Shown here piece by piece: positions 32,750 to 60,306 of a stretch of DNA of 64,000 bases (position 1 is its first letter; the number at the start of each line of letters is the position of its first letter). Both the position numbers and the translations under genes were made by a program. The notes beneath the pieces were generated by a model, which worked only from the letters and a program-made list of their open reading frames with translations, did no database searches and had not been told where the DNA came from. This DNA comes from Trichormus sp. ATA11-4-KO1 (GTDB lineage Bacteria > Cyanobacteriota > Cyanobacteriia > Cyanobacteriales > Nostocaceae): positions 96,001 through 160,000 of the forward strand of contig JAHHIM010000036.1 of assembly GCA_019358915.1 (NCBI GenBank). Reading direction: 5' to 3'.

Positions 32750-32851
32750 ATAAAATATGTATCTTTCTTGGTGTCTTAGTGCCTTTGTGGTTCAAAATTA
32801 AAAAAAACACAATAATAAAAAGCCTAATTGATTTGCAATCAATAAAAACAT

Positions 32852-33757: not shown

Positions 33758-33794
33758 TTGCAAAATATCTGGGAATTTAGAGGGTTTTAATATC

Positions 33795-40583: not shown

Positions 40584-40663
40584 GCTTGTTTTTCTAAGCT
40601 GAATATAGATAGTCTACAAGTAAGCAAGTAGGTGCAATTCAAATCTCAATATACTCATGCCTC

Positions 40664-40727
40664 GTAGTGAGTGCTTTAGCGCTTATATTCAAGGTTTTCA
40701 GGGCTAGATCCACTGACTACAAACTTT
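40664..40727 (-). repeat. Dispersed 64-bp repeat, copy B (inverted)
   Basis: Inverted partner of 39206-39269. Confidence 0.9.
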
Positions 40728-40785
40728 CCTTTACTTAAATGAGACATAACCCAGCAATATTATCAAAATTTGTCAAATTAGGTAT

Positions 40786-42024
40786 CTACTGCTGAGTGCA
40801 GATTTCTTTATATAGTTGAGACAGGAAAAAACCTTTAGTTTCCCAACTAAAAACATCTTTTACTCTCTTTTGTCCTGCTTGACCCATACGCAATCTCAAC
40901 TCTGGGTCTTTAACCAAAAATAACATTGCTTTAGCAATACTTTGTACTGCTTCTTCAGGTGTACGTGCCTGAATTTTAAAGCCAGTTTCTTCCGTAACCT
41001 GAACAGATGGACCTCCCAAATCCAAACAAATTACTGGACACCCTGCTGCCATTGCTTCTAAGCAAACCCAACCACCAGAATCATGCAGGCTAGGGTGAAC
41101 TAGCACCGCGCACTCGCTAAGTTTACACAAAGTTTCATTTCTGGATAATCTACCCCAAAATTTAACTTGGTGAGCAACACCAAGTTCTGCGGCAAAAGTC
41201 TTTAATCGTTCCAGTTCAGGCCCGTCTCCCAAAATCCAGTATTCTGTATTTTCAGGTAAATCTGCTGTAGCAAATGCTTGCACTCCCAGATGAAACCCTT
41301 TCCAGTGCAACAATCTGGCCATACTAATAAACCGAATTGGTAAAATATCAGAATTATTATGCTGGGCAAGTTGCTGAATTTCCTCTTTTGATAAACCTGA
41401 CTCAGGAAGAATTTGGACATTTTTTGCACCCATTTGGTGCAGTCGTTGAGCGGTATCTTTTGTTGTTGCCCAAGCTAAAATACTACGCCTAGCAGTCAGG
41501 CGAACAAAGGGGTCGTTTTCCCCAAACAAGCGGGCTAGATTTCGCAGAAATTCATAAATTTTGCCACGCCAGCTAAAATTTTGCCAAAAGGTTTTGGGCG
41601 CTAATTCTCCACCTCCCACAGGACCCCAGATAAAAGGAATCGGTAAAAGTGCAAGAAAACTGGGACTAGAGTATTTAACATAGGTTACATGATGTGAAAT
41701 ATCAAAGCAAATATCTTGATGTAGTGAGCGACTGACAAAATATGCTTTAATTTGCCAGAGATAGTAGTGAAAATAAACCCATTTTTGTGTGTGCTTTCCT
41801 TTTGGACTCCAATCTATAATCCAGCCCCAGGGATCTAGATAAATGAAGTGTAAGTTGGGTATTGGGCTACGTGCAAGTTCAGCTTCAATGCCTGAGCGGT
41901 GGCAATTTGATGTTAAGACCCAGACATGACAATACTTGCTTACTTCCCGGACAACATTCCAGCCTACTCCTGGTTCGGAGCCTTGACCTGGTTCACAGGC
42001 GTATGCAGAAATCAGAATATTCAT
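40786..42024 (-). CDS. GT4 glycosyltransferase
   Basis: SAYACEPGQGSEPGVGW, RLLHWKG, HDSGGWVCLEAM. Confidence 0.92.
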   Translation of the reverse strand: MNILISAYACEPGQGSEPGVGWNVVREVSKYCHVWVLTSNCHRSGIEAELARSPIPNLHFIYLDPWGWIIDWSPKGKHTQKWVYFHYYLWQIKAYFVSRSLHQDICFDISHHVTYVKYSSPSFLALLPIPFIWGPVGGGELAPKTFWQNFSWRGKIYEFLRNLARLFGENDPFVRLTARRSILAWATTKDTAQRLHQMGAKNVQILPESGLSKEEIQQLAQHNNSDILPIRFISMARLLHWKGFHLGVQAFATADLPENTEYWILGDGPELERLKTFAAELGVAHQVKFWGRLSRNETLCKLSECAVLVHPSLHDSGGWVCLEAMAAGCPVICLDLGGPSVQVTEETGFKIQARTPEEAVQSIAKAMLFLVKDPELRLRMGQAGQKRVKDVFSWETKGFFLSQLYKEICTQQ

Positions 42025-42042
42025 AATTTGAAAGCATATTTT

Positions 42043-43338
42043 TTAAGTCAGAATTTCGGGATGAGTTTTATAAATTTTTATTGCTGCTAGACCTACACCA
42101 TACATTGTCCAGAGCCAAATACCACCTGTAGGCCCTTCAATAATTACTTCAAATGTTGTGACTGTCATACAAGCTACCCAATAAGCAAGCAGCGTCAAAA
42201 ATATTCCAGCCCATTTTGTTTGTCCTTTTGCTCTGCATTGCAAATACTTGGCTAGTATGGTTCCAGCCCAACTTAATTGAACCAGTAGCCACAGAACGAG
42301 GCCAGGAACACCAGTACGACCCAGAACTGTTATGTGCCCATTGTGCGGACTACGAACTATACCACCACCTATAGGATCAAAGCCGATTCCAGCACCCAAA
42401 TTGAAACCAAATCCTCTACCCGTCCAAAAGTAATCTCCAAAAATAGTAGTGTCGATTATGTATGTCCACCATTCTAAACGATACTCTTTTGAACCCTGTC
42501 TTTCTTGGTTATCAACAAAAATACTATTTATTCTTACAAACAAAGGTTCAAATATTTCTGGATTTATTATAAATAATACTAAAATTACAAATATTAAAAT
42601 TGTTAATATCTTCCAAATTTTACTATTTTTATACTTAGTAAAGCTGATAAAAGAAAAAGCATTTAAAAATGCCAAAATTCCTGATCTATTTGAACTAGTA
42701 CCAACCACAGCTAAATTTATTAGAAATACTAATATAAAAAATGCAGTTTGCAATCTCAATAAATTTGAGCCAATAAAAAATGCAGTAATTGTAGACAAGT
42801 GAGTCATTGTGTCAGCTGGTTTAAGAGTAATTATCTCAACAGCCGAACCAGGTACACGTGGTAATGATATTGTTCTTGATATTAACCAAATGAATGGCAT
42901 GAGAATAATAAAAATTCTGCTAAAACGTTCATATTGGTTAATTATAAAAGTAAAACGATGTGGTTTACCAACTAATAATGCAGCAATTATCAGGGCAAAA
43001 GAACAGTAATACCACAAAGCAGCATCACGTATTGAGTCTAAGCCATATTGAGGAAAATAGGGTATGGTGTTGATGCAACACCATAGCATAAATATTATTA
43101 GAAACCAGGTTTGAGGTAGTTTGAGTATTTTGGGAATGGATTTATTAATACTTAAAGTTATCAATCCAAATAATAGAGTAATTTCACCAATGTAAGCAGG
43201 AGGAATACCCCAGTAAGAAAAACCTCTACCACAAAGGGCATAACCTAGAAGAACCCAGCTATGCCAGGTTAAAAATTTATCGGCAAGTGCAAATTTTTTT
43301 CCAGATTTATTCGCTGAAACACTTGTCTCTCCTAGCAT
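42043..43338 (-). CDS. O-antigen ligase / Wzy-like polymerase
   Basis: About 11 TM segments; NRSG, R..WW, TGRGFG, RSPHNG..G..G. Confidence 0.8.
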   Translation of the reverse strand: MLGETSVSANKSGKKFALADKFLTWHSWVLLGYALCGRGFSYWGIPPAYIGEITLLFGLITLSINKSIPKILKLPQTWFLIIFMLWCCINTIPYFPQYGLDSIRDAALWYYCSFALIIAALLVGKPHRFTFIINQYERFSRIFIILMPFIWLISRTISLPRVPGSAVEIITLKPADTMTHLSTITAFFIGSNLLRLQTAFFILVFLINLAVVGTSSNRSGILAFLNAFSFISFTKYKNSKIWKILTILIFVILVLFIINPEIFEPLFVRINSIFVDNQERQGSKEYRLEWWTYIIDTTIFGDYFWTGRGFGFNLGAGIGFDPIGGGIVRSPHNGHITVLGRTGVPGLVLWLLVQLSWAGTILAKYLQCRAKGQTKWAGIFLTLLAYWVACMTVTTFEVIIEGPTGGIWLWTMYGVGLAAIKIYKTHPEILT

Positions 43339-43532
43339 CTTATTTTCTACCTGCTATAATTGGTTGTGAAATTTATTTAAGTAATTACGCTTTTGCCATT
43401 GAAACAAAGGGTAGAAACAAATAGCAATCTTAAATCATTATTCGTAGTGATTGATTTAGTGTTTAAGCTCAGGTTTAAAGCCTTTATCAGATACTTGGTT
43501 TTAATTTTATTTTGGCTGTTATTGACCTTAAT

Positions 43533-44711
43533 TTAAATTTTTGAGAACTTGCGACTAGAAACCAGTTCGTAAATTTCCATTATTCGGTGGTAGTTTTGCT
43601 GCGCTGTGTATTTGGCTATAAACTCAGCTCGTGCTTCTTGGCGCATCTGAGCAAGCATAATTGGATTTGCTATAGCCCACTGTACCTTAGATGCAAGATC
43701 CTCTGGGTCACCAGGAGAGAAATGTAAGCCTGTTCGACCAGATTCTATTAATTCTGCGATCGCTCCAATATTAGCAGCAATTACAGGGGTACCTTTGGCA
43801 AAAGCTTCAACTGCTACCCGACCAAAGGTTTCGTACCATTTGGAGGGGAAGATTAAAAACATTGCTTCCCCCATCAATTGATGTACTTCTGACATCGGTC
43901 TACGTCCTAGCCATTCCACCTTAGGCAATTTTTTTGCTGATTCCACTACCTCAGAAGCCAAGGGACCATCACCGACAATCTTTAAAGGGATTTTCCCTTC
44001 TAAAAGTTGCCAAGCAGCAAGCAGGGTATCTAATCCCTTTTCAGTAGAAAGTCTGCCTACAAAAAGGGCATAGCCACCAGAACCGCCACCGATACCAGGA
44101 TCTGGATGCACAAAGTTAGGCTTAACTACAATTTTTTCTGCGGGCAAACCACCTGCAATAAATTTTTGGCGTGCAAACTCAGTTAAACAAATGTAAACAT
44201 CTACCATTTCGCTCCATGTACGCATGGCACGATGCAAGGTTAACATTGTTGCTACAGCAACAGTTGCTGGGCGATTTTCGCGGTAGCAGCTATGTAAAAC
44301 TCCAGGATAGGGAACAAACTTCCCCAGACAATCTTCACAGACTTGCCCATCACGGAAAAATAAGCCATTAGGACAAAGGAGTCGGTAATTCCTTAGTGTC
44401 TGGACTACGGGTACACCTTCTGATTTGGCTGCGTAGTAAACAGATGGGGAAATCAGGGGGAAAAAATTTTGGATATGGACTAAATCGCAGTCAGACTGCC
44501 TAAGTTTTTTTTTAACTATGTTGTAAGACTCTGTTGACCAAACGGTTCTAAGTGCCATTGGTACAGCGCCAATAGCTGCTACCCGATCATTGTGTTCTTG
44601 GTAGACATCAACTTCATGACCCATTTCCCGTAATAGGCGTTCCTCTGACTCGCGGGATTCATCCTCCCCGCCACGAATTTGATAGTTGTTATGAACACTT
44701 AGGATTCGCAT
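43533..44711 (-). CDS. GT4 glycosyltransferase (paralog of 39405-40583)
   Basis: GGED, NYRLLCP, GRLSTEKG, WYETFGRVAVEAFA. Confidence 0.92.
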   Translation of the reverse strand: MRILSVHNNYQIRGGEDESRESEERLLREMGHEVDVYQEHNDRVAAIGAVPMALRTVWSTESYNIVKKKLRQSDCDLVHIQNFFPLISPSVYYAAKSEGVPVVQTLRNYRLLCPNGLFFRDGQVCEDCLGKFVPYPGVLHSCYRENRPATVAVATMLTLHRAMRTWSEMVDVYICLTEFARQKFIAGGLPAEKIVVKPNFVHPDPGIGGGSGGYALFVGRLSTEKGLDTLLAAWQLLEGKIPLKIVGDGPLASEVVESAKKLPKVEWLGRRPMSEVHQLMGEAMFLIFPSKWYETFGRVAVEAFAKGTPVIAANIGAIAELIESGRTGLHFSPGDPEDLASKVQWAIANPIMLAQMRQEARAEFIAKYTAQQNYHRIMEIYELVSSRKFSKI

Positions 44712-44725
44712 AGCTCTTGTTAGTG

Positions 44726-45169
44726 TTAGGACTTACGCAACTGGCACAAACAATGGGTGGTACGGGATTGGATAAGAGCAGAATATAACTCAAACTAATG
44801 TCATACGAATATCCGGCGTTTGAGTTGCTGAGCCAATAAGAATTAATTGCATCATGACTGATACTTTTCAAATGCTCTGCTAAATTAGTAATGGTATAAT
44901 TGACTTGACTGCTAAGTAAATACTGGCAATAATCTAATTTAGTGAATTTCATACTCAATAACCAGTCAGCGATTAATATCTATTAATTATTTTCCCAGAT
45001 CAAGCAAAATCCGTCTATTTTTAGAATTTATTATTTTTGGATATCAAAGTCTATTTTTACAGTTGTAACATTTGTTTTTTACCTAATTTTAGCTTTTTAA
45101 ACTAGTTTGATTATCGATGGTACGGCTACGCCGTACCGAGACTCATTGTGCCAGTTGCGTAAGTCCTAA
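44726..45169 (-). mobile_element. Internally deleted IS701-like element
   Basis: Perfect 24-bp inverted ends TTAGGACTTACGCAACTGGCACAA; transposase-like N-terminus MKFTKLDYCQYLLSSQVNYT..SHDAIN. Confidence 0.85.
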
Positions 45170-45177
45170 GTGTGTCT

Positions 45178-46431
45178 TTAAGCTAAAGCTTTACCACTGT
45201 AATCATTATCATGAATAATTGTTTCATAGAGCTGTGTTAAAGATTTAGCCTTCATATCCCAGTTAAAGAATTGAGCAACTCGCTTTTGTCCTACCTGACC
45301 CATCCTCACTCGTAATTCTGAGTCCTTAGCTAAACAAGCCATAACCTCAGCTAGGTCATGTATTGCTTGGGTGGGGGTGTTAGCCGGAACTTTGAAGCCT
45401 GTTTCTTCTGTGACCTGAACGGCTGGACCACCTAAATCTAAGCAAATCACTGGACGGCCTGCTGCCATTGCTTCTAAACAGACAAATCCTCCCGATTCAT
45501 GTAAACTTGGATGTACTAATACATGGCAGTTTCCTATCTTGCTTAAGGTCTGTTCCCTTGACAAATTACCCCAAAATTTAACTTGTTGAGCAATACCTAA
45601 TTGTTGAGCAATCATTTCCAGGCGTTGCTTCTCCAATCCCTCTCCTACAATCCAATACTCACAATCAGGGAGGTTGGCTTGAGCAAATGCCTTTAATCCC
45701 AAGTCAAATCCTTTCCAATGTAACAGTCTACCTACGCTGATAAACCTGAGAGGAAGATTGTCGGATATTGTGTAATTGGCGAGTTTGGCTAATTCTTCCT
45801 GCGATATCCCTAACTGAGAACATACCTGAACATTTTTAGCTCCTATCTTATGTAACCTTTGACTTGTATCATTGGTTGTCCCCCAAGCTAAGATACTGCG
45901 CCGCGCAGTCATACGAACAAAAGGGTCTTTTTCTCCAAGCCAACGCAACAAATTTCGTGCATACTCGTAAATTTTGCCACGAAGACTAAAATCCTCCCAA
46001 AATGCTTTTGGGGCAGACTCCCCACCTCCAACAGGACCCCAGATGAAGGGTATTGGTAGGAGTGAAAGAAAACTTGGTGATGAATACCTGACATAAGTTA
46101 TGTGATGTGCTAAATCAAAGCTGATATTACTGTGCAACTTGCGAGCAACCAAATAGGCTTTAATTTGCCAAATATAGTTGTGAAGATGTACTCCCCCAAT
46201 ACCTCGTTTCCACCATTTAGATCCGGGTAAGTCAACATACACAAATTTTATTTTAGATATGTAGTTATTATTTGTTAACTCAGCCTCAATAGATGTGCGA
46301 TTATCTTCTCGAGTCAGTACCCATACTTGATGATATTTAGCCAGTGCTTGAACTGTATTCCAACCTACTCCAGGTTCGGAACCCATATTCGGTCTACAGG
46401 AATAAGCAGACACTAAAATTTTTAAAGACAT
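45178..46431 (-). CDS. GT4 glycosyltransferase (paralog of 40786-42024)
   Basis: SAYSCRPNMGSEPGVGW, RLLHWKG, HESGGFVCLEAM. Confidence 0.92.
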   Translation of the reverse strand: MSLKILVSAYSCRPNMGSEPGVGWNTVQALAKYHQVWVLTREDNRTSIEAELTNNNYISKIKFVYVDLPGSKWWKRGIGGVHLHNYIWQIKAYLVARKLHSNISFDLAHHITYVRYSSPSFLSLLPIPFIWGPVGGGESAPKAFWEDFSLRGKIYEYARNLLRWLGEKDPFVRMTARRSILAWGTTNDTSQRLHKIGAKNVQVCSQLGISQEELAKLANYTISDNLPLRFISVGRLLHWKGFDLGLKAFAQANLPDCEYWIVGEGLEKQRLEMIAQQLGIAQQVKFWGNLSREQTLSKIGNCHVLVHPSLHESGGFVCLEAMAAGRPVICLDLGGPAVQVTEETGFKVPANTPTQAIHDLAEVMACLAKDSELRVRMGQVGQKRVAQFFNWDMKAKSLTQLYETIIHDNDYSGKALA

Positions 46432-46512
46432 TATTATCTAATCCATTACTATACTGAATTTCAACCAAAGTCTTGGGAAAATTTGATGCCTTGCGAACAA
46501 AAGGTATTGTTT

Positions 46513-47655
46513 TTAAACTTCATTTTCTAACACTGCTTCATAGATACCTTCCAAAATTTTGATTTGCTTAAAGTTATCAAAATTTTTTCGCATATTTTCC
46601 CGTCCTTTTAAGCTGAAGTATTGCCACTGTTCAGAGTTTTTCAATAACTGCAAAGCATATTCTGCAAGCGCTTGTGAATCTCTTTCGGTTGCCAAGAAAC
46701 CAGTTGTTCCATGAATAACTGCTTCTGGGATACCTGCATGAACTGTACTAATTACAGGGAGTCCCATAGCTTGAGCCTCAACAACAACTGTAGGCAATCC
46801 CTCCGAATCTCCTTCGATAGCAGTGACACTTGGTGCTGCAAGTAATTGAGCGCGATTCATCCAACTTTTAACAACATCTGAAGGCTGAAGTCCCAGAAAT
46901 TGATAGCGATAAAGCATTTTTGTTGCTTGTGCTTCTAAGTCTAACCGCAGAGGACCATCACCAATAATTACTAGTTTTACATTAGGAAGAACTGACTGCA
47001 CTTTAGCCATTGCCTTAATCAGGTATTCACACCCTTTCTTTTCTGTCAATCTCCCAACAAAAAGCACCACTGGCTCTCGTGGTACTGCTGGATCTGGTTG
47101 AAATTTATTAATATCTATCCCATCATAATGCGTAATAACTTTATTACTGGGAAACCCCTGTTCTAATAGTTTTGCTTTGATAAAATCAGAGACGGCAATA
47201 AACAACTGCGCTTCACGCTTAAGTGTTTCACGGCGGCGATAGTAAATCCAGTGGTTAAAGGAGGAATAGCGGGCGTACTCTTCTTTAACAGTGGCATCAG
47301 CACCTCGAAAGTGAACTAATAAAGGAATATTGAGGTTTTGTGCCAAAGGAAGTGCTAGCACCCCACTTAGCCCAAACTGGGCATTGATTAAAACGGGATT
47401 CACATGCTGAACTTGTCGATATAATTTAGGAGCAAATCCTGCAAGTTTGAATAACCCTTCTACTGATTGACCTAAAAACCCTCCTTGATTAACAACTAGA
47501 GTGCGTTCTGGAGGTAAGGTTAATCCTTTTACTAAACGTGAGCCTACGTAGTAAGGAGTAAAGTGTTGCAATTGTTCGCCCAACAAATCGCGAACAAAGG
47601 TTTGAGAAGGAGGAAGCAGTAAACTACTAAATATAACTATATTGGGTTTGACCAT
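46513..47655 (-). CDS. GT4 glycosyltransferase (WcaL/AmsK-like)
   Basis: GRLTEKKG, GDSEGLPTVVVEAQA, HAGIPE. Confidence 0.9.
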   Translation of the reverse strand: MVKPNIVIFSSLLLPPSQTFVRDLLGEQLQHFTPYYVGSRLVKGLTLPPERTLVVNQGGFLGQSVEGLFKLAGFAPKLYRQVQHVNPVLINAQFGLSGVLALPLAQNLNIPLLVHFRGADATVKEEYARYSSFNHWIYYRRRETLKREAQLFIAVSDFIKAKLLEQGFPSNKVITHYDGIDINKFQPDPAVPREPVVLFVGRLTEKKGCEYLIKAMAKVQSVLPNVKLVIIGDGPLRLDLEAQATKMLYRYQFLGLQPSDVVKSWMNRAQLLAAPSVTAIEGDSEGLPTVVVEAQAMGLPVISTVHAGIPEAVIHGTTGFLATERDSQALAEYALQLLKNSEQWQYFSLKGRENMRKNFDNFKQIKILEGIYEAVLENEV

Positions 47656-47714
47656 GCCCTGGCTTTTACTCCTGTGACATATAGCAATTTAATTTCAACA
47701 TAATAATTGAACAT

Positions 47715-49055
47715 TTACAATTGTACTCCGTTAAATTCATCCCATGCTTTTTTAACTTTTTTACCTGATTCTAAAGCACGATTTCTTTCAGCAAGAACTT
47801 TCAGAAAGAGAGCAGAACTTATTTCAGGTAATTTTATCAAAAAATCATCTAATGAAGTTATTATAACTTCTTTATTTATTGTTTCAATATCTTGTACCCA
47901 TTCATCCATACCCAGTCTTCTAAATAATTCTTTTGTCTTAAATTCATAGGCAATAGGAAATACAGGAGTACCAGCTATCAAAGACAAGATGGCCATGTGC
48001 ATTCTTGTTGCTATAACTACATCATAATTTCTAATTATTCCTACTAGTTTTTTTGGAGAGTGAAAATCTTTATTCAAGTGAACTTGTTTTTGAATTTGAT
48101 TAGGAAGCAAATTAATAATTTCTTCAGCTACTTTTGAATCGTCAGTCCAATATTCAGGAATACCCTGGCAAGTAGAAATATATGTAATTTCAGCATTATA
48201 TTTCTCAATTAAATATTGAGTAACTTCACTCATGACTTCTACAAAATTTGTGAATCCATCTTTTTGACTAACTTTTGTGAAGTGATTCCAGTACCTCACC
48301 GAAATTGCTATTTTTACTCGCGAACTACTTACATTTTTTTTATAAATATCTTTGTGAAATCCCACATCATCGGTAAATGAAAATACTACATCTGAGCTAA
48401 TTAGCACTTTGTTCAGGTTAGCATTTATTTGTTTAAGATTATCATAAGATGCTTCATCCCGCAGCATAACAAGAGTAGACTTATTAAATATTTTTCTGAA
48501 TATATTTTGGTTTTTTATTTTATTAAATGGACCTAATGACTGGGTAAAAAACACTAGTGGTCGTCTCAGCATTAGTGTCATTTTATAATCGAATATCCTA
48601 GCTTTAAGTGAATATTTTTCTATTAGATATGTTCCACCTGTACTTACTACTAAATCAGCAGAACTGTAGTTTTTAAAATCTTGTATTTCTTCGCTATTTA
48701 ATAGAAATTTAACAGCAAAGTAGTTCTGATTTCTCCAGAGCCATACTGCTAAATATAGTCGAATAGGATTAATCATTAATATTATTTTTATAAAAATAAC
48801 CAAGAAATTTCTTACAGTAGATCCAAATAGAGACTTTCCTAAAAAATTCATAGAGGGAGGCTGTGTCGCTTTCAAATATACCAGTTTGCGAAATAATAAA
48901 TTAGAATAATATTTACTGGCTATTTCTGGCTGACTATCATAAATAATAATTTCTGTATCTTGACCAAATTCGAGACGAAGTAAGTCAACAATTGAAAAAA
49001 GAATAGCCGCGTCTCCACCATTCAAAGCGACAGTATTAGTGATAATTATTTTCAT
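47715..49055 (-). CDS. Polysaccharide pyruvyltransferase (WcaK/AmsJ-like)
   Basis: NGGDAAI, STGG, QSLGPF, LRDEAS, TRMH. Confidence 0.88.
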   Translation of the reverse strand: MKIIITNTVALNGGDAAILFSIVDLLRLEFGQDTEIIIYDSQPEIASKYYSNLLFRKLVYLKATQPPSMNFLGKSLFGSTVRNFLVIFIKIILMINPIRLYLAVWLWRNQNYFAVKFLLNSEEIQDFKNYSSADLVVSTGGTYLIEKYSLKARIFDYKMTLMLRRPLVFFTQSLGPFNKIKNQNIFRKIFNKSTLVMLRDEASYDNLKQINANLNKVLISSDVVFSFTDDVGFHKDIYKKNVSSSRVKIAISVRYWNHFTKVSQKDGFTNFVEVMSEVTQYLIEKYNAEITYISTCQGIPEYWTDDSKVAEEIINLLPNQIQKQVHLNKDFHSPKKLVGIIRNYDVVIATRMHMAILSLIAGTPVFPIAYEFKTKELFRRLGMDEWVQDIETINKEVIITSLDDFLIKLPEISSALFLKVLAERNRALESGKKVKKAWDEFNGVQL

Positions 49056-49417
49056 GATTTTTAACTGATTTCTAAGATAGAGTTGAATTCTTTGACAAAA
49101 TAAAATTTTGTTTTTAAATATGCAAAATTACAAGAATTTTGTAGTGTTTTTTATTGCTAGCAACTTTTGCATCCATATTAGTCTATTTTTTTGACCTATT
49201 GTCAGCTTAATCTACCCATAATGTAAATATAAAAGGGGCTAAATTCTTAAATCCTTCTTCTTTAATTGTATTTCAAGCTACTTTTGGAACTACATTTAAT
49301 TTAGTTTACAAGCATAGGGCAATACTAAAACTTTTAGTCTATTTTAATTTACTAATTTATGATGCCCATATGGGACACAGCACAGAAAACATTTTTGATA
49401 ATTAATGCTAAGAAAAA

Positions 49418-50566
49418 TTAGAACAATAGTTTTTTATACTCCTCTAAAGTAAAAGATGCAATTTTTTCCCACTGGAGATTGTCGAGCACATAATGCCTTC
49501 CTGCCAAACCCATTTCTTTCCACTCTGAACGGCGTTGAAGTAATTTTCCAATACCTGACTTAACATCTGATATGTTTGATGCAACTACAACACCACAACC
49601 GCTAGCTTCAACATGAGGTGCAATGCCTGCAATTTCCGAAACCAATAAGACCCGACCTGCTAGCATAGCTTCTACAGCAGCTAAACTAAAGCCTTCAAAA
49701 CGTGAGGGAATACAAAATACATCATGACTTTGTATAAGGAAAGAAGGAGATTTATCGAAATCAGGATTAAGAAATGAAACTTTTTTGTCAAGGTTTAGTT
49801 TTGCTACTTGTGCTTGTAAAGTCTGCTTATCTCCCCAATCTGGACCCTGTATTGTCAGATGAATATTTTCCTTTTCAGCAATTTGAGAAAAAGCATCTAT
49901 GAGGATATCTAATCCTTTATTATATGAATCTATACGGCCTAAGAAAAACAATTTGGCATTATCATTTTTTTGCCATTGCAGTGATGACTCCGGATAAACA
50001 TCTTTTGCAGAAAAACCATTATATACGGTTAAAACAGGAGTATTAACTTGCCGTTGATGTAGAAATTTAGCATGTCGAGAGTCCAGAACCTGAATAGCCT
50101 TTGCTTGCTTCAACATTTTTCGCTCAAAAAGGTACCAGTATGGTAACTTCAAATGAGCATTTTTACTAAAGATAGCAGGACTATAAGGATCATGTGGTGC
50201 GACAATATATGGCACTCCATACTTTTTTAGTATGCGAGACATGGAGTATACACCTGCATGAAAGATGCCATTCAGAATTACAAGGCTTTTGTCATCTAAA
50301 TAATCGCGAATGTAGTTTTGCAAATCAAATGCAATATTGAATTTTCGTGGGTTCATATTTGAGCTACCAAAAGCTATAATTTCATAGCCAGATTGGGTTT
50401 CATACAAACCTTGCTTCGATGAGTGTGTTTCACATAGGACTTTTACTCTAGCTCCGCAGTTGACTAACCCTGAAGCCAATCCATGTACAGCCTTAATTGT
50501 TCCCTGTGGTAGCATTACTTTATCACCCAATGGTGGAAAGTTTTTTAGATAAAAATAAATATTCAT
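49418..50566 (-). CDS. GT4 glycosyltransferase
   Basis: GRIDSYNKG, SRFEGFSLAAVEAM. Confidence 0.9.
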   Translation of the reverse strand: MNIYFYLKNFPPLGDKVMLPQGTIKAVHGLASGLVNCGARVKVLCETHSSKQGLYETQSGYEIIAFGSSNMNPRKFNIAFDLQNYIRDYLDDKSLVILNGIFHAGVYSMSRILKKYGVPYIVAPHDPYSPAIFSKNAHLKLPYWYLFERKMLKQAKAIQVLDSRHAKFLHQRQVNTPVLTVYNGFSAKDVYPESSLQWQKNDNAKLFFLGRIDSYNKGLDILIDAFSQIAEKENIHLTIQGPDWGDKQTLQAQVAKLNLDKKVSFLNPDFDKSPSFLIQSHDVFCIPSRFEGFSLAAVEAMLAGRVLLVSEIAGIAPHVEASGCGVVVASNISDVKSGIGKLLQRRSEWKEMGLAGRHYVLDNLQWEKIASFTLEEYKKLLF

Positions 50567-50777
50567 AGCTTACCATTGAAGAGATTTTGATATTTAAACT
50601 TAACCTATTCTTAATTTGAATTAAGTCTTGAAACAATCGCAATTTCGCAATTAGTTCCAAAATAATATTTTTGGACGAGTTCGGAAACCCTTGTAGTACA
50701 ACAAGCATTTACATGTTATGTAATAAAATGTAACTTGCATTTAAACGTGTAATATGATTACTTACTACATATCTTAC

Positions 50778-51641
50778 TCAAGCCAAACCTAACCACCCTT
50801 GCATCCTACCTTGAAATGTAAACCAATAAGATCGAACTTTATCTAAACGACCTTGTAAAAGTGATATTGCTATTCCCATCAATGGGCGAACCCAATTATA
50901 AATCACGAACCACAAGGGAGCTTTATGTTTACGAAGAACGCGACCTCTACCCATTGCGTAAGCATAAGTTTTGGAATAGGTTGCATTTTTGCTGGCTTTA
51001 ATAAGTTGGATAGGTTCTGATGGTGTTAACTTGATTGGATGAATTACAGTTATCGAGGGTTCGTAATATAAGCCAGTGTTAATTGCACGCAACAAGTAAT
51101 CAGTTTCCTCAGCGGAACCCCAAGGTGTATTTGCTCCAACTCCTAAACTTTCATCAAATTTACCTACCTGCATTACAGTAGCTCGGCGAAGAAATATAGT
51201 ATACGAAATACCCCTTCGCCACACATTAAATTGGTTAATTAATCCAGGTGGACTGCCAAGATGTCTACCAGAGTCTCTACCTTGCTCATCAATAGAACTT
51301 CCTGTTAAACCATTTAACTCGGGATGATTAATAAAAAAACTCGCTACACGCTCAAGAATATCTGGTGGATAAGCGCAATCATCATCAGGGAAAGCCACAA
51401 TATCACCATTAATCTGCTCCAAAGCAACATTACGAGCGCGGGAAAGCCCTGGGGCTGAACGCAGGTGTATGATGGGATATCTATGCTGATAAATCTGGAT
51501 AAATTTTACAAGGCGGTCATCTGGATTTTGATCTACAACAATCAAATCAAAGCTACGATAAGTTTGACAATCTAAAATTTTTAAAAAATTTTCAACCTCA
51601 GCAGTACGATTTAAAGTTGCTAGAATTAGGGAAAACTTCAT
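50778..51641 (-). CDS. GT2 glycosyltransferase
   Basis: IVVDQ, GLSRARN, AFPDDD, FDESLG..EETD. Confidence 0.9.
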   Translation of the reverse strand: MKFSLILATLNRTAEVENFLKILDCQTYRSFDLIVVDQNPDDRLVKFIQIYQHRYPIIHLRSAPGLSRARNVALEQINGDIVAFPDDDCAYPPDILERVASFFINHPELNGLTGSSIDEQGRDSGRHLGSPPGLINQFNVWRRGISYTIFLRRATVMQVGKFDESLGVGANTPWGSAEETDYLLRAINTGLYYEPSITVIHPIKLTPSEPIQLIKASKNATYSKTYAYAMGRGRVLRKHKAPLWFVIYNWVRPLMGIAISLLQGRLDKVRSYWFTFQGRMQGWLGLA

Positions 51642-51701
51642 GATTTTACTTCCTATTAATTAGTTACAAGTGCTACCACTTTCAGGTTTATGGTAAAGCT
51701 G

Positions 51702-52694
51702 TTACTTTGCTATTAAGTAAAATTTATCCTTGAATTTAATTAAATTTTTATGTCCTTCACGTCCGAATATTATTAATATCAATCCAGTTAATATGTATGT
51801 TCCAGAAATAGGTAAGAATTGCAATAAACTAAGTGTGTAACGTAAAGCTAAAAATCTATTATTTGCATCAACCGCTTTTCCTAATCGATTTACTTGTATA
51901 ATTGAAGTTTTTAACCCTACACACTCACGATAACCTTTATATCCAAGATGCTGTTTTATAATTGAACCCCACTTATTTTCAAATATATGAAAACCTTGCA
52001 AGTTAGCTGATAGATTGCCTCCAATTTGCTTATTATGAAAATATCTGATGATTAATGGTTCGTTCACAGTAAGAAAGTGATTATTAGCTTGAGCTAAACT
52101 TAGCCATAGGTCATAATCTTGAAAGCTAGGTAACCTTTCGTCAAAGCCACCGACATCTATTAAAGCGGAGCGCTTAATCATAAAAAGGGATGTAGTTGGA
52201 GGTAACCATCCTCTTAATAAATGATTAAAAACATCCCCCTCATGGGCAATCAAATTTGGCAGTTTCTTGCGTTGGATTGATTCATAATATTCATATCCCG
52301 AACAATAAACTACAGTGGCATGAGGATTATCACTAGACTGGAGACGAGCTAACTGTAATTCTAGTTTTCTGGGTAGCCATTCATCATCACTATCTAAAAA
52401 AGCTATATAGTCTGCACGCGCTGCTTTAATACCTTGATTTCGTGCATGGCTACCACCGCAATTTTTTCCTAAAGGTAAAAATCTAATTCGTGGATCTATA
52501 AAGTTCTTAACTACTTCATCTGTATTATCTGTAGAACCATCGTCTACAATAATTAATTCAAAATTTGAAAATGTCTGTGCAAGAACGCTAGAGATCGCTC
52601 TTGGTAGTAGATTAGCTCGGTTAAAAGTGGGTATGACAACACTAACAGTTAGCTGATTTTCAAGTGTTAACGACACGTTGCCTGAAACTGCCAT
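51702..52694 (-). CDS. GT2 glycosyltransferase
   Basis: SVVIPTFNR, VDDGSTD, FLDSDDEW, QDYDLW. Confidence 0.93.
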   Translation of the reverse strand: MAVSGNVSLTLENQLTVSVVIPTFNRANLLPRAISSVLAQTFSNFELIIVDDGSTDNTDEVVKNFIDPRIRFLPLGKNCGGSHARNQGIKAARADYIAFLDSDDEWLPRKLELQLARLQSSDNPHATVVYCSGYEYYESIQRKKLPNLIAHEGDVFNHLLRGWLPPTTSLFMIKRSALIDVGGFDERLPSFQDYDLWLSLAQANNHFLTVNEPLIIRYFHNKQIGGNLSANLQGFHIFENKWGSIIKQHLGYKGYRECVGLKTSIIQVNRLGKAVDANNRFLALRYTLSLLQFLPISGTYILTGLILIIFGREGHKNLIKFKDKFYLIAK

Positions 52695-52746: not shown

Positions 52747-54012
52747 CTAGTTAGTCAAAGCAGCTAAGTTTTTAACTAAGGCTATAACTTGAGAACGAAT
52801 TTTTTCCATTTCAAATAGATTGATTAATTCAGACTGTCGTTTAAACTCGTCGTCTTCCAAAATTTTTAGTACTTGCAATACAACTTGTTCATTTAGTACA
52901 GATACTGTATGTTTAGATATCCCCAAAGTCGAAAAAAAATTTTCTATTTTGGGACCGACAAAAAGCCCTAGCACCGGAACACCCTCAGCAAGAGCCAAAA
53001 TAGCTGAGTGTAACCTAGTAGCAAGGACAGCTGTACTAGAACGCATCAAAGTTCTAAGTTGCTCAACATTGGTGCAAACATGAAGGCTACTACTAGATGT
53101 TGACAACTGGCTGAGTATAATTTTCGCTCGTTTAATATCTCCTGAATTACCAGTTGTGAACAACTTGACACAAGATTGGTTGTTTCCTGAATGTTTATCT
53201 AACCATGCGTTAATTATTTTACAAAGGACATCATCATACCTAGATTGGTAATGGGAAACGTGCTTTTTGTAAGCCATTACATTTACAGCTAATATTTGCT
53301 GGTTTGAAGTATGTGGCATTAATTGCCTTGGCTTGATTGCAAGTAAGGCAAAATCACCAAAAACTGGAACCTGAGTTCCTAGTCTTTGTGACAAACGGTT
53401 TGCTGTATTATGGTCTCTTGTAGCTATAAAATAACAAGATTTAGCAAAGGCAGTAATTATTTTTTCACCTTGTTTAGACCATTCAGTTTCTGCACTACAG
53501 CCTAGACAGATTAGTGGAATTTGAAGCTTTTTAGATGCCCACATAATTGTAGATAGAGATTGGGGAAAATGCAAATCCGTATCTGATAGCAATGCTCCAC
53601 CTCCAACCATAATTACTTGAGCATTTTTTAGCTTTGGTATGAGCTTTTGTATTCGGATGCGCTGAATTATTGGTCTAAGTCCTCGTTTTAAAATTTTAGT
53701 TAGTTCTATCTTTAAACTATAAAAATTGCTGGGAGAAGAAATGTTTTTGAAAGATGAGTATGGGGTCTTATAGTTCATTTCTTTAGGAAAATAGACTTCA
53801 CCAGACTTTTCGTGCGAAGAGAGTAGATGTATGGGATTTTGAACAGGTTTTAAAGTTCCAAAATTATAGGCATCAACACTGTAACCAGCCTTTTGAAAAA
53901 ATTCAGTCACACCTTGACAAATAGCTCTGTCCCCCAAATTTGTAGTGTTCCATTCTCCAAATGCAGCAATTTTTATATCTTTGCTTTTATCCACTTCCAT
54001 ATTTTTATCCAA
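52747..54012 (-). CDS. Polysaccharide pyruvyltransferase family protein
   Basis: NLGDRAI, VGGG, TRD, TRLHSAI. Confidence 0.82.
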   Translation of the reverse strand: MDKNMEVDKSKDIKIAAFGEWNTTNLGDRAICQGVTEFFQKAGYSVDAYNFGTLKPVQNPIHLLSSHEKSGEVYFPKEMNYKTPYSSFKNISSPSNFYSLKIELTKILKRGLRPIIQRIRIQKLIPKLKNAQVIMVGGGALLSDTDLHFPQSLSTIMWASKKLQIPLICLGCSAETEWSKQGEKIITAFAKSCYFIATRDHNTANRLSQRLGTQVPVFGDFALLAIKPRQLMPHTSNQQILAVNVMAYKKHVSHYQSRYDDVLCKIINAWLDKHSGNNQSCVKLFTTGNSGDIKRAKIILSQLSTSSSSLHVCTNVEQLRTLMRSSTAVLATRLHSAILALAEGVPVLGLFVGPKIENFFSTLGISKHTVSVLNEQVVLQVLKILEDDEFKRQSELINLFEMEKIRSQVIALVKNLAALTN

Positions 54013-54060
54013 AATTAAATTTATTTATTGTTAATATTTATTTGTTCTCATAAGTAATTA

Positions 54061-54906
54061 TCAATCAACTTTAATTAGTTCAAGAGCAGTTTTTTGCCTA
54101 GTTACGAAATGTAAAAAATTAGCTATTTTAATCAGAAGAATTATTGAATAAGTACTATGAGACTTGTTGAGTATCCAGTTACTTGTTTTAGGAGAAAACA
54201 TAGCTCTACCAATGGAGACACCTTTAAGCTTTTCAAGTATACTGAAGTTAGCATTTTTGAATACAGAGCCACAGTTAGGTGCCGTATTATCTTGATGTTC
54301 TTTTGCCCAAATTTGTCTTGAGACTAAAGGATTGTCATTAAATTCTGTTCGTTCAAACTTGAAAACCGCACTTAATATCAGTTTAGAATGTATACCAGTA
54401 AATATCGTCTCTCTATAACCTCGCACAATTTGATTATTTTGAAGTGTTTTAATACATCCATTCTCAAAGAAAGTTACACTTTCAACAAAATCATATATTG
54501 TACATCCATATTGTCTCCCTCTACCAGCATTCATTGCTAATGCACCTCCAATCGTTGCCGGGACAGACGCAAGATAATAAAAAGAATTCATGGAGTTTTG
54601 GTAACAGTGTTTTAAAACCTCCATGATTAAAACTGAAGAAGATATTTCTAATTTATCTTCAGTTAAAGAATTTATGTACTTAGGTAGTTTGTTTTTTAGT
54701 ATCAATGATTTGATATTTTTTTTCACGAACAAGGTATTGGAGCCATTTCCAATTATGTAAATGTTTACTTTGTTTTCTTTTGCCCAAATACAGTACTCAC
54801 GGAGGTCATCTAAACTACTAATTTCTCCTACTCGCTCAAAATGATGGCGAGTTCTATAGTGAGAAAGACTAGTTGATGTTAAAGACTCAATTTTTAAATT
54901 AGACAT
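54061..54906 (-). CDS. MurB-like FAD-dependent enolpyruvyl reductase paralog
   Basis: IGNGSN, PATIGGALAMNAG, GYR, PNCGSVFKN, SPKTSNWILN, terminal LEL. Confidence 0.85.
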   Translation of the reverse strand: MSNLKIESLTSTSLSHYRTRHHFERVGEISSLDDLREYCIWAKENKVNIYIIGNGSNTLFVKKNIKSLILKNKLPKYINSLTEDKLEISSSVLIMEVLKHCYQNSMNSFYYLASVPATIGGALAMNAGRGRQYGCTIYDFVESVTFFENGCIKTLQNNQIVRGYRETIFTGIHSKLILSAVFKFERTEFNDNPLVSRQIWAKEHQDNTAPNCGSVFKNANFSILEKLKGVSIGRAMFSPKTSNWILNKSHSTYSIILLIKIANFLHFVTRQKTALELIKVD

Positions 54907-54917
54907 CTTCTCTCTTT

Positions 54918-56075
54918 CTACTCCTTGCTACACTCAACCTTATTTTTATTACGGTCTGCTCCTTCTGTAATTGCTTCCAGTAAATATTTTTTTGATTCCA
55001 AAATTTTTAATTCCAAAACTTTAGACACTATTTCATAGTCTATATCAAAAGCTTTTTCTTTTACTTGGGATATAGTATTTTCTGAAAATATCCTATCTTC
55101 CAATGATAAATCTCTAAGTAAATCGGTTACTTTGTTCGATTTGTTGCTAGGAACAAATACACTAAAAGGTTTTTGAAAAATAATTGCAAATATAGTTCCA
55201 TGATAAGTATTAGTTACAATGTATGATGCTTGGCTGAACGCTCCAATCCATTCCTGTGGACAAGCATTTTCTAGATTCACTTTTGCTACTTGATTACATT
55301 TACCAATTGAAACTATATTTAATCCATGACGTTCTGCTATTGATTTCACTAAATCCTCCTCAGTCGAAGCTAATTCATCCTGGTTATAAATTAAAAGATA
55401 TTTACCTTCTATTTTGGGAATATGTTTAATTGCATCATAGTTAATTAAAAACGTAGGATCTAAAACTTTTTTAGCTACCATATTACATTGATTTACAATT
55501 ATTCGCTCGCTGTTAGAATCACGAACCAAAATCGTTTGAAATTGATTAACTAGATTACATATTTCTTCTCGATGATTATTTAGTACTGTTAACTCGCCAA
55601 AACTAGCTGCATAACTTATCTTACGGGTAGCTTGATTATTAACAAAATCTAAAAAGAAAGAGGCATCAAATCCTCTGATAGAATTGAGAGACCATATTTG
55701 ATCACTACCGCATATTACTACATCATATTTACTATTAAAGTGTTGCAAGCCTTTTTTTCTATAAAATTTCCTCTGGCTTAACCTGACGTGGGAAAGCAAA
55801 AATTGCCTGATTTTCCAAGCTCTAGAAATATTGACGAATATCTTTTCATTAATATGGAGTTGATGAATACTAAGCTTTTGACTTTCATGAATGCTAAGTT
55901 TTTTCCTTCTGATAGGTCTTAAACTTTTTGTATAGTATCTAACTGCCCTATAAGGCCTATAGTCTATTATTTCAACGTCATAGCCTTGACTGTTAAGGAA
56001 ATTCCATAGAGCATAAGCTTGAAGTGTTGCCCCGTAGTTATCTATATGGTGAAAAGTTATAATTCCTATTTTCAT
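54918..56075 (-). CDS. Polysaccharide pyruvyltransferase family protein (NYGA / GSDQIW type)
   Basis: MKIGIITF..NYGATLQAYAL, CGSDQIW, SYAASFG, VRD, DPTFL, NTYHG. Confidence 0.88.
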   Translation of the reverse strand: MKIGIITFHHIDNYGATLQAYALWNFLNSQGYDVEIIDYRPYRAVRYYTKSLRPIRRKKLSIHESQKLSIHQLHINEKIFVNISRAWKIRQFLLSHVRLSQRKFYRKKGLQHFNSKYDVVICGSDQIWSLNSIRGFDASFFLDFVNNQATRKISYAASFGELTVLNNHREEICNLVNQFQTILVRDSNSERIIVNQCNMVAKKVLDPTFLINYDAIKHIPKIEGKYLLIYNQDELASTEEDLVKSIAERHGLNIVSIGKCNQVAKVNLENACPQEWIGAFSQASYIVTNTYHGTIFAIIFQKPFSVFVPSNKSNKVTDLLRDLSLEDRIFSENTISQVKEKAFDIDYEIVSKVLELKILESKKYLLEAITEGADRNKNKVECSKE

Positions 56076-56289
56076 CTTTGCTGTCTCCAAATCAAAGTAC
56101 TAATTTGATATATCACACATTTCGTAAGCTAATTTACAAAATTATTTTGATTCTAGCTTTTGTTTCTTATGTTTCTTAAATAAATTCATTTAAACTTCTC
56201 CTGGCTATATTAAGTTGATTTTATTCAGTTATAATCTAATTTTAAAATTTACTTATTTAAGTTAGGTACTCATTAATGTATGAAAAATT

Positions 56290-57798
56290 TTATATCTTTT
56301 TTTTTCTTTTAAGCTTGATGTTTACAAAATCGGTTAAGCCAAGAATCTTTTTGAAAAGCTTTGGTGATATTACAAAAACGATAAAAATATAACTTAAAGT
56401 ACCAACTAAGATTAAACTAGCTGTTAATAACTTCATTTCAATGCCAATAAATGTTACCAATAAATATTTAATAGCTATCATACTTCCAATCATCCCTAAA
56501 GAAGCTACTAAAGGTACCATATATAAACGCAAATATTGAATAAAATTAAGTTTAACCAATTTGTGAATAGCCACCAGTGAAATAGGTAAGAGTAGATAAC
56601 CACGAATTACATAAGCAGATGCTACAGCTAAGATACCCCATTTTACTACTAGTATAAAAGATACGACATTAACAACTGTATTTATAATTTGTATCCATAA
56701 CCTCCAGGCGGGTTTGCCCAATGCCATAATCACAGAACTGTTATAGAAGGCAATTATATGAACAGGCCCAATAAGTGCTAGAACTTGCATTACTGGAATA
56801 CTTTGAGTCCATTGCTTACCAAATAAAATTTGGACTAATTCAGGTGCCAAAACTGTGAAGCTAAGAAACATCGGAAAAGCAATGGTACTACCAACTTCAG
56901 TAACATTATAGAAAGCTTTTATTAACCGTTCTGGTTCTCCCTGCAATCTAGAAAATACCGGGAATGCAACTTTACCTATCGTACTAATTAAAACTTGTGT
57001 CATTACTTGTAATATTCTGTAAGCAACAGAGTAATAACCTAGTGCAACTGATCCAAGGTAGCGTCCAATGAGTAAATCATCTGACCTACGATTAAAAAAG
57101 TTAATTATACTAAACGCAGTTACATTAATGCCAAAAGCATAAAGTTCTTTAGCATGAATGGCTGAAAATTTAAATCCTGGTCGCCAATCGCTAACTCGCC
57201 ACAAAACCAAAACCTGCAATAAGCTATTAGATATTTGTTGACCCACGAGGCTCCAAACTCCAAAGTTTAGAAAAGCCATTCCTACACCAACCATTCCACC
57301 GAATACAACTGCGATTAGTGAACGTATTGCTAAAGTCTTGAAAGCAAGATTACGTGTAAGAATAGCGCTTTGTACACTGCTTAAACCACTAAATATAAAA
57401 CTTATTGATAAGTACTGAATAATTGGTGTTAATTGGGGTTGGTCAAAGAAATTAGCAGCTAATCCGGCACAAGATATACTTAATACGGTCAAGAATACAC
57501 TAATTGTTAAAGTTGTCCAGAAGGCTGTATCTAGGTGTTCTGCTTCTAATTCTTGACGTTGGATAAGTGCTTGAGAAAATCCTTGATCAAGAAAAATTTG
57601 CACAAATCCAAGAAAAACTGAAGCTAAAGCAACTAGACCAAAAATTTCTGGATTGAGTAACCGAGCTAGAACGAAGAAAACAATTAAGGAAACTCCTTGG
57701 CGTCCCCAATTTTCAATAGCAGACCAAGCTAAACCTTTAACTGCCTGTTTTCGTAAATTTGATGGCTTTTCAGGTGATTCCATTATCGGATTTACCAA
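56290..57798 (-). CDS. wzx: Wzx-type (MOP superfamily) flippase
   Basis: LARLLNPEIFG, GFSQALIQ, multiple TMs, LGYYSVAY. Confidence 0.88.
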   Translation of the reverse strand: MVNPIMESPEKPSNLRKQAVKGLAWSAIENWGRQGVSLIVFFVLARLLNPEIFGLVALASVFLGFVQIFLDQGFSQALIQRQELEAEHLDTAFWTTLTISVFLTVLSISCAGLAANFFDQPQLTPIIQYLSISFIFSGLSSVQSAILTRNLAFKTLAIRSLIAVVFGGMVGVGMAFLNFGVWSLVGQQISNSLLQVLVLWRVSDWRPGFKFSAIHAKELYAFGINVTAFSIINFFNRRSDDLLIGRYLGSVALGYYSVAYRILQVMTQVLISTIGKVAFPVFSRLQGEPERLIKAFYNVTEVGSTIAFPMFLSFTVLAPELVQILFGKQWTQSIPVMQVLALIGPVHIIAFYNSSVIMALGKPAWRLWIQIINTVVNVVSFILVVKWGILAVASAYVIRGYLLLPISLVAIHKLVKLNFIQYLRLYMVPLVASLGMIGSMIAIKYLLVTFIGIEMKLLTASLILVGTLSYIFIVFVISPKLFKKILGLTDFVNIKLKRKKKI

Positions 57799-58000: not shown

Positions 58001-58795
58001 TCAGTCACCTGTTCCCAGGAAACCCCCTGCAAAACGACTTGATGAAAGCATCTGTTTAGTCGCCAACCAAATAAAGGGCGGAATTGTTGTACCATAACGC
58101 CGCCAGAGTCGGCGCGGCTCTTGAACCCAGCGATAAAGCCACTCAAACCCTAGGTCTCGAACTATGCGGGGTGCGCGCTTTTGAATGCCTGCATAAACAG
58201 GGAAAACCCCACCCACGCCAATCATGACTGCCTGAATTTTATCTTGATGCTGAGCCATCCACTTTTCTTGTTTTGGACACCCCAGGGATACAAAAACTAC
58301 CCCAGCGCCACTGGAGTTAACTGTATTTATTAAAGCCTCGTCTTCAGTCTCAGTTAGAGGGCGAAAAGGTAAAGGTTCCATCGCCGCTACTTTTAGCTTA
58401 GGAAATTCATCTTCTAGACGTTCTCTCATCCTAGAAAGAATTTCGGTTTGCGAACCAACAAAGAAAACACTGACATTTTGCGTTTGAGCTTTTTCACACA
58501 AAGCTAGAAAAAGATCCATTCCCGCGACACGGTCTTGGTAACGCGCCCCCATATACCTCATCATCCACACGAGGGGCATACCATCAGGGGTCACTAAATC
58601 TGCATTGTGTAGTACGTTAGCAAACTCTGGATTCCAGTGAGCTTCCATCAGCATGTGTACATTCGCTACACATACAGCTTTACTCTCACGAGCGATCGCC
58701 CACCTCAGTATTGTTTGTATCTGATCATCAAAGCGCAAAGCAGTAATAGGGAAATCAAGCACTTTTTGAGTAGGCAGAAAAGTTCTTCCTACCAT
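58001..58795 (-). CDS. WecB/TagA/CpsF family glycosyltransferase (GT26)
   Basis: PDGMP, RVAGMDL, LGCPKQE, FEWLYR..QEPRRLWRRY. Confidence 0.93.
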   Translation of the reverse strand: MVGRTFLPTQKVLDFPITALRFDDQIQTILRWAIARESKAVCVANVHMLMEAHWNPEFANVLHNADLVTPDGMPLVWMMRYMGARYQDRVAGMDLFLALCEKAQTQNVSVFFVGSQTEILSRMRERLEDEFPKLKVAAMEPLPFRPLTETEDEALINTVNSSGAGVVFVSLGCPKQEKWMAQHQDKIQAVMIGVGGVFPVYAGIQKRAPRIVRDLGFEWLYRWVQEPRRLWRRYGTTIPPFIWLATKQMLSSSRFAGGFLGTGD

Positions 58796-60105: not shown

Positions 60106-60306
60106 AACGTGAGTTCGATGAACCTCACCCCAACCTCTCTCCGACACGGAGAGGGGCTTAAATATCTTGAAAGCTCAACGAGAAATTAAGATTTTGAAGC
60201 CTCTAACGCCACGTGCTACAACGCGGGGAACCCGCGCAACGCAGTGGCTCCTCCTTGCAGGGGAGAGGTTTGGAGAGGGGTTTTTTCAACTTGTCGAACT
60301 CACGTT
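60106..60306. mobile_element. MITE with 13-bp TIRs and a 5-bp target duplication
   Basis: AACGTGAGTTCGA / TCGAACTCACGTT, flanked by AGTTT on both sides. Confidence 0.85.

Follow-up and report, generated by a model that had tools for sequence, protein, structure and literature searches.

Many bacterial glycans carry lactyl ethers, whose enzymes are known from genetics only. In peptidoglycan, MurB makes the (R)-lactyl group of N-acetylmuramic acid (MurNAc). A two-gene route to lactyl sugars that depends on a pyruvyl transferase is already known from enterobacterial genetics, and two genes reportedly serve the lactyl sugar of S. boydii 17, as the title of a paper by Senchenkova from 2006 is said to put it. 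The cited passages of PMC7685785 list lactyl groups for the Escherichia coli O antigens O58, O69, O124, O146, and O150, and explain the missing lactyl group of O164 by a frameshifted copy of wfeP, the pyruvyl transferase gene of O124. In this study, we analysed a stretch of 64,000 nucleotides (nt) from the cyanobacterium Trichormus sp. ATA11-4-KO1 (contig JAHHIM010000036.1, positions 96,001 to 160,000), designated the window. Within an extracellular polysaccharide (EPS) cluster of the window, a gene of the pyruvyl transferase family PF04230 (PVT1) is followed by a gene for a MurB paralog (murB2). We propose, with a probability of about 0.8, that PVT1 would transfer an enolpyruvyl group to a sugar of the EPS repeat unit and MurB2 would reduce it, so that the sugar carries an O-(1-carboxyethyl) (lactyl) ether. 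This is our best reading; the two genes co-occur and are also found fused, and it rests further on where the transferase falls in its tree and on the swapping of reductases.

PVT1, a putative enolpyruvyl transferase of the NYGA/GSDQ subtype, occupies an open reading frame (ORF) at 54918-56090 on the minus strand. Its start is likely ATG 56072, which has GGAG upstream, rather than TTG 56090, giving a gene at 54918..56072 and a protein of 384 amino acids (aa; Pfam E value 1.2e-42). MurB2 (54061..54906, minus strand, 281 aa), a putative flavin adenine dinucleotide (FAD)-dependent enolpyruvyl-ether reductase, matched PF01565 and, marginally, PF02873. The purine-rich spacer of 11 nt between them (54907..54917, minus strand) likely holds the ribosome-binding site of murB2. 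A sequence-only reading of the window had described this spacing, the MurB motifs, and a setting among EPS genes instead of cell-wall genes. All three were found: MurB2 carries GNGSN, PATIGGALAMNAG, YR (164-165), GSVFKN (213-218), and E276, and the pair is surrounded by a flippase, a WecG/TagA glycosyltransferase (GT), GT2 and GT4 genes, and a Wzy-like gene. Two further PF04230 genes of the cluster, PVT2 and PVT3, were absent from that reading.

MurB2 is a MurB by fold, not by membership. It scored below all seven NCBIfam MurB cut-offs (best 127 against 259; TIGR00179 99 against 144.5). The first Foldseek matches of its predicted AlphaFold model (AF2; mean predicted local distance difference test score 87.5) were MurB structures (template modelling score 0.84, E 2.5e-19), and its closest named relatives were Nostoc proteins with 79-84% identity. 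The sequence-only reading had proposed a phylogeny and a look for a second murB as checks, and both came out in favour of a separate paralog. For a FastTree tree, the MurB2 loci were combined with one third of 69 loci of housekeeping type and with about half of a set of 121 full-length representatives. Of the 113 sequences, 83 fell into a MurB2 clade (Shimodaira-Hasegawa-like support 0.985). This clade includes forms from archaea, fusobacteria, and alphaproteobacteria as well as fused proteins, and it contains none of the 24 MurBs from housekeeping loci. In the window genome (99.9% complete), the only other murB directly follows murC on contig C1, and its product is about 25-28% identical to MurB2. 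MurB2 is neither in a mur/dcw context nor the sole murB of the genome.

We take R159, S229, and E325 of E. coli MurB to be its catalytic residues. The cited passage of PMC11643738 lists them merely as pocket residues. R165 of MurB2 aligned with R159, and S214 and E276 were matched to the catalytic positions via alignment with housekeeping-type MurBs. These positions were conserved within the MurB2 clade (R165 in 83/83, S or T at 214 in 81/83, and E276 in 83/83). Other positions had changed. Four residues ahead of the Q in QP, 28 of 30 housekeeping-type MurBs have Arg and the other 2 have Lys; this Arg is absent in MurB2, which has A201. The His of KHANF (30/30 housekeeping-type MurBs) is mostly Thr in the clade and T241 in MurB2, and an extra Arg or Lys was present at position 197 in 79 of the 83 members. 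In the predicted site, the chemistry is retained and the substrate side is remodelled.

We examined how often PVT1-type genes accompany murB2. A PVT1-type gene was located within 3 kb of murB2 in all 14 family relatives, in one of them across wzx. It was also present at 10 of 11 named MurB2 loci, including Lentisphaeria, Peribacteraceae, and Fuerstiella; one of the 11 apparently comes from the same genome as L012, and the single miss ends 214 nt after murB2. Locus L025 is a PVT1/murB2 pair in a Candidatus Peribacteraceae genome. A metagenome search with a MurB2-specific motif yielded 101 stretches, and 79 remained after removal of 21 without flanks and one probable self match. A PVT1-type gene was found at 54 of these 79 loci (46 upstream, 8 downstream) and at 28 of the 29 with at least 2 kb on both flanks; after clustering, it was found at 43/64 loci at 90% identity and 21/35 at 60%. 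Since the gene order was swapped at some loci, the linkage is more than synteny. No PVT1-type gene was found at 70 housekeeping-type murB loci, and a Mur ligase was present at 59 of the 69 control loci (drawn from 80 loci of one MurB locus search). The MurB2 motif had no match in viral contigs. Annotated pairs were also found in Cetobacterium, in Novosphingobium, and in the haloarchaeon Natrinema pellirubrum, where the pair stands beside a flippase, aglF, and aglM. In addition, P0245 (3 members) is a natural PF04230-MurB2 fusion; a search of longer proteins for PVT fusions found none among 45 matches (8000 candidates scored). MurB2 domains occurred in two other fusions as well: P0149 (476 aa, 14 members) has a formyl-transferase domain, and P0234 (674 aa) has an FrhB-like Fe-S domain, which may feed electrons to MurB2 or may be a second reductase joined to it.

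The sequence-only reading had allowed that the housekeeping MurA might supply the first step. MurB2 would then reduce uridine diphosphate (UDP)-N-acetylglucosamine (GlcNAc)-enolpyruvate and provide extra UDP-MurNAc for peptidoglycan or MurNAc for the EPS. The MurB fold and triad are retained, and the single murA of the genome sits in the window, 6 kb upstream of murB2 on the same strand. However, the proximity of murA is a trait of the locus and not of MurB2, because a nitroreductase version of the module sits at the same murA-linked locus. Moreover, murB2 was beside murC at 0 of the 79 metagenome loci, the tie to PVT1 would be left unexplained, and the pair occurs as a fusion and in a haloarchaeon, a member of a group without peptidoglycan. 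A supply from MurA is very improbable.

PVT1 was compared with characterised and annotated PF04230 enzymes. Its identity was 29-30% with the enzymes of E. coli O146 and O124, but 13-16% with WcaK, PVT2, PVT3, and a CsaB-like protein. In a tree of 55 PF04230 sequences, 45 formed one group (support 0.861) in which the partner types were mixed, and PVT1, O124, and O146 shared a subclade (0.982). The Asp of the NxG-D motif was absent in 45/45 clade members and present in 9/10 sequences outside, and an S-D pair was present in 45/45, counts that are partly circular because the profile used to count PVTs was built from NYG-type seeds. The NxG-D position, which corresponds to D106 of Pvg1p, is Ala in PVT1 and Asp in PVT2 and PVT3. 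In the cited passages of PMC10435577, Pvg1p D106A is inactive and D106 is modelled at O6 of the acceptor. Loss of this Asp would fit an enzyme that leaves the ketal ring unclosed.

The E. coli clusters of O69, O124, and O146, three of the five lactylated types, were compared with the window. The O146 cluster has a nitroreductase, wzx, and a PVT; the O124/O164 cluster has wzx, an FrhB-like gene, and a PVT, which was split in 3/6 genomes; and the O69 cluster has an FrhB-like gene, wzx, and a PVT. Each of the three PVTs carries the NYG/GSDQ motifs. E. coli SE15, taken for an O150 strain, was annotated O16, and three glf-led loci turned out to be other types. Direct blastn into E. coli genomes gave nothing useful.

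Three unrelated flavoproteins (MurB-like, FrhB-like, and nitroreductase) swap beside the PVT1-type gene, and two of them are also fused to it. PVT1 was present in 25 of 300 Nostocaceae genomes. Of these, 14 have MurB2, 7 carry a close nitroreductase ortholog (within the locus in 6 and on another contig end in 1), and 4 have neither. MurB2 and the close nitroreductase were never found in one genome among the 300. In locus L267, the order is murA, M48, tagA, nitroreductase, wzx, and PVT, and in genome G029 (L127/L006) it is tagA, murB2, wzx, and PVT; by gene order, this is a replacement in place. The window genome has no close nitroreductase, and its sole PF04432 gene is on another contig. Plasmids gave a similar picture. 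Among 108 records with a PVT1-like gene, 13 loci were opened, and these contained MurB2 (4, one a remnant), a nitroreductase (4, one fused), or an FrhB-like gene (3), with no partner within 13 kb in the remaining 2. A PF04230-nitroreductase fusion was seen in Paracoccus alcaliphilus (L114:2593-5142). In G011, a MurB2 genome, a distant nitroreductase is located elsewhere beside another PF04230 subtype, and in G206 the close nitroreductase adjoins another PF04230 subtype. Because three unrelated flavoproteins fill one slot and one of them is a MurB homolog, reduction of an enolpyruvyl ether is indicated.

PVT1 might instead form an ordinary pyruvate ketal, and MurB2 might tailor a sugar through a separate, unrelated redox reaction of its flavin. 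The active-site residues of MurB2 are altered, some PVT1-type genes have no reductase partner, and the characterised PF04230 enzymes are all ketal transferases in the cited passages of PMC6801904. However, PVT1 clusters with the enzymes of lactylated O antigens and not with WcaK or CsaB, the O164 frameshift abolishes the lactyl group (PMC7685785, cited passages), and the three-way exchange of flavoproteins, with its fusions, also speaks against a ketal. We regard ketal formation by PVT1 as improbable.

In the proposed lactyl-ether mechanism, PVT1 would transfer the enolpyruvyl group from phosphoenolpyruvate (PEP) to a sugar hydroxyl. As PVT1 lacks the Asp that contacts the second hydroxyl in ketal-forming enzymes, the ether would be released and not the cyclic ketal. 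MurB2, as one of the three interchangeable flavoprotein partners, would then saturate the enol ether with reduced FAD and a Ser proton, as MurB does on UDP-GlcNAc-enolpyruvate, and the product would probably be the (R)-lactyl ether. By analogy, the acceptor is quite likely an undecaprenyl-pyrophosphate-linked repeat unit before Wzx flipping. CsaB and WcfO require lipid-pyrophosphate acceptors and refuse UDP-sugars (PMC6801904, cited passages), and a lipid-linked repeat unit is therefore likelier than UDP-glucuronic acid, which the sequence-only reading had named as assay substrate and which now looks doubtful. The same lactyl ether could also be built on a nucleotide sugar (UDP-sugar to UDP-enolpyruvyl-sugar to UDP-lactyl-sugar), a sub-case that differs in the acceptor. 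MurB itself works on a UDP-sugar, and the cited passages of PMC7685785 hold wfeP responsible for UDP-GlcpLA, by assignment rather than by assay. Besides the acceptor requirement of CsaB and WcfO, the C-terminal helix gives a weak hint of membrane contact against this route: it is more cationic and hydrophobic in the MurB2 subclade that contains the cyanobacteria (net charge +3.6, Kyte-Doolittle value 0.54) than in housekeeping MurBs (+0.2 and -0.18). On balance, assembly on a nucleotide sugar appears unlikely.

Since the lactyl groups of MurB and of nosturonic acid are both (R) and Nostoc commune NIES-4072 encodes MurB2, the pair is a natural candidate for the nosturonic acid route in N. commune. 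Nosturonic acid carries a lactyl ether at O-3 of glucuronic acid (PMC5983295, PMC6017307); the cited passages of PMC6017307 give it as the (R) ether and propose that it shapes how Nostoc colonies handle water, as well as their rheology. The sequence-only reading had proposed an enolpyruvyl ether that is reduced to a carboxyethyl sugar of this type. Co-occurrence, fusion, transferase clade, and reductase swap favour the two steps. Nosturonic acid stays a candidate product because the sequence fixes no acceptor sugar, and neither does a UDP-glucose dehydrogenase homolog on contig C1. We give nosturonic acid an even chance of being the product in N. commune, and in the window organism we consider it doubtful. 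The claim that no genes had been assigned holds, within our searches, for nosturonic acid and fails for lactyl sugars as such, which are assigned in E. coli O124/O164 (PMC7685785, cited passages). We found no literature that ties a MurB paralog to a lactyl route or genes to nosturonic acid, in a search that left outside most subscription journals, including key carbohydrate papers.

A wider reading joins these findings. The large PF04230 subfamily with NYG-x/GSDQ and without the NxG-D Asp could transfer enolpyruvyl groups to lipid-linked glycans independently of MurA, and the ether could be finished and its stereocentre set by three unrelated flavoenzymes, MurB2 and FrhB-like proteins giving (R) and the nitroreductase giving (S). 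In Nostoc, the MurB2 version would yield nosturonic acid, and in haloarchaea it would lactylate a sugar of the glycans. This joint reading is tentative, at somewhat less than even odds, and the lactyl configurations of O69 and O146 that enter it are reportedly those implied by word order in the title of a paper by Knirel from 2017. A sequence rule for lactyl ether versus ketal, and perhaps for R versus S, would follow from the altered motif together with the exchange among three reductases. The pair is also a testable gene candidate for the nosturonic acid route in Nostoc. Annotation is corrected as well, since MurB2 proteins, the archaeal one included, have been labelled 'UDP-N-acetylmuramate dehydrogenase' or 'FAD-binding protein'.

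Several observations weigh against the lactyl-ether reading, in addition to the partial circularity of the motif counts. MurB2 was patchy, being present in 14/300 Nostocaceae genomes and in 2/400 genomes of the phylum, where 6 candidates were scored per genome and copies may be missed; the genomes counted are not independent samples. None of the three partners was nearby in the 4 of 25 PVT1 genomes with neither gene, and 2 of the 13 plasmid loci had no partner. Some nitroreductases adjoin other PF04230 subtypes (L282-L284). No PF04230 gene stands by murB2 in L149, and the PF04230 gene is of another subtype in L139 and L196. None of the lactylated E. coli clusters of O69, O124, and O146 uses MurB2. 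Because the Arg before QP and the His of KHANF are lost, the electron donor or the substrate of MurB2 could differ from that of MurB. Neither an enzyme assay nor a strain with both the PVT1/MurB2 pair and a solved lactylated EPS was found. The N. commune MurB2 record is from NIES-4072, and the nosturonic acid strain is another, DRH-1. As a separate observation, similar proteins of about 410 aa without a Pfam hit stand beside MurB2 at L149:1311-2558 and L184:1411-2625, where no PVT was seen.

The pair belongs to an operon-like run on the minus strand, comprising a tagA-type GT, wzx, PVT1, murB2, PVT2, GT2/GT4 genes, PVT3, and a Wzy-like gene. The WecG/TagA/CpsF glycosyltransferase (58001..58795, PF03808) opens the tagA-wzx-PVT1-murB2 unit, and the Wzx-type flippase (56290..57798, PF13440 E 9.5e-96) upstream of PVT1 is kept in many relatives. 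This gene order was repeated in loci L027 and L128. In the Nostoc loci L128, L017, and L027, the unit lacks the GT block found downstream in the window, and it must therefore cooperate with genes elsewhere. PVT2 (52747..54012), of the ketal-like NxGD type, begins 48 nt after murB2, and PVT3 (47715..49055) is of the WcaK/CsaB-like NxGD type by Pfam and motif comparison. Both are probably ketal transferases acting on the polymer that PVT1 and MurB2 would modify. The remaining EPS operon (39405..52694) contains six GT4 genes, two GT2 genes, and a Wzy/O-antigen-ligase-like gene (42043-43338), assigned by Pfam.

The 48-nt gap raises the alternative that MurB2 partners PVT2, or that the module has decayed in the window strain. 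The other PF04230 subtypes at L139 and L196 would agree with the former. Broken copies of murB2, one in L027 and one on a plasmid of N. flagelliforme, would agree with the latter. On this plasmid (L100:3742-5162), a murB2 remnant of 54 aa and transposases come after wzx and PVT1. However, PVT2 is not adjacent to murB2 in the 14 family relatives and keeps NxGD, and PVT1 and MurB2 are both full length with conserved residues. We find this alternative hardly credible, and retain PVT1 and MurB2 as the pair.

Other features of the window were observed. GC content is 0.30-0.31 at 54001-57000 and about 0.40 in the whole window. A lasso-peptide-like cassette lies within the EPS locus (29533-37210, plus strand), with genes for a transglutaminase-like B2 protein, an asparagine-synthase-like cyclase, an HPr-kinase-like protein, an ATP-binding cassette transporter, and a nucleotidyltransferase, a 79-aa precursor-like ORF at 32423-32662, and an ORF that, by its motif, is presumably PqqD-like. 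A gene for a secreted GH59-like glycoside hydrolase (37734-39176, plus strand) stands where the EPS operon ends and was seen in L261 too. A flavin mononucleotide (FMN)-dependent dehydrogenase gene (60305-60955, minus strand) is probably broken, as its 216-aa product has an internal deletion relative to a 374-aa ortholog in L128.

Klebsiella capsules K22, K37, and K66 are said to be lactylated. These types have pyruvyl-transferase genes but no ketals, and the set includes two nitroreductase genes and one F420-hydrogenase gene (PMC4616057, cited passages). Campylobacter has also been linked to a pyruvyl-transferase-dependent lactyl route (bioRxiv 10.64898/2026.05.23.727390, cited passages). Enterococcus faecalis cps offers a parallel of a MurB-family gene with a lactylated capsule: cpsG is annotated 'MurB family protein' (PMC2766626), and the cps product carries 3-O-lactyl-galactofuranose (PMC3060912). 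CpsG enters this comparison by its annotation, and the cited passages of the two papers do not connect it to the lactyl group.

The E. coli O124/O164, O69, and O146 modules resemble PVT1/MurB2 in having the same PF04230 subtype (NYG, GSDQ, SFH) with a flavoprotein gene in a wzx-containing cluster. Their product contains the lactyl ether. They differ in the partner, which is FrhB-like (O69, O124) or a nitroreductase (O146) and not a MurB paralog. WcaK, CsaB, WcfO, and Pvg1p share PF04230 and the invariant N, G, R, and H of the PEP-site motifs with PVT1, whereas PVT1 lacks the NxG-D Asp and has the invariant S-D. We know of no reductase partner of a ketal pyruvyl transferase. PVT1 (PF04230) is unrelated to MurA (PF00275), and MurB2, unlike MurB, is tied to glycan clusters and falls below the curated cut-offs. 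The likeness to MurA/MurB lies in the proposed chemistry of enolpyruvyl transfer and flavin reduction, and in the MurB fold, the FAD motifs, and the Arg, Ser, and Glu of the active site.

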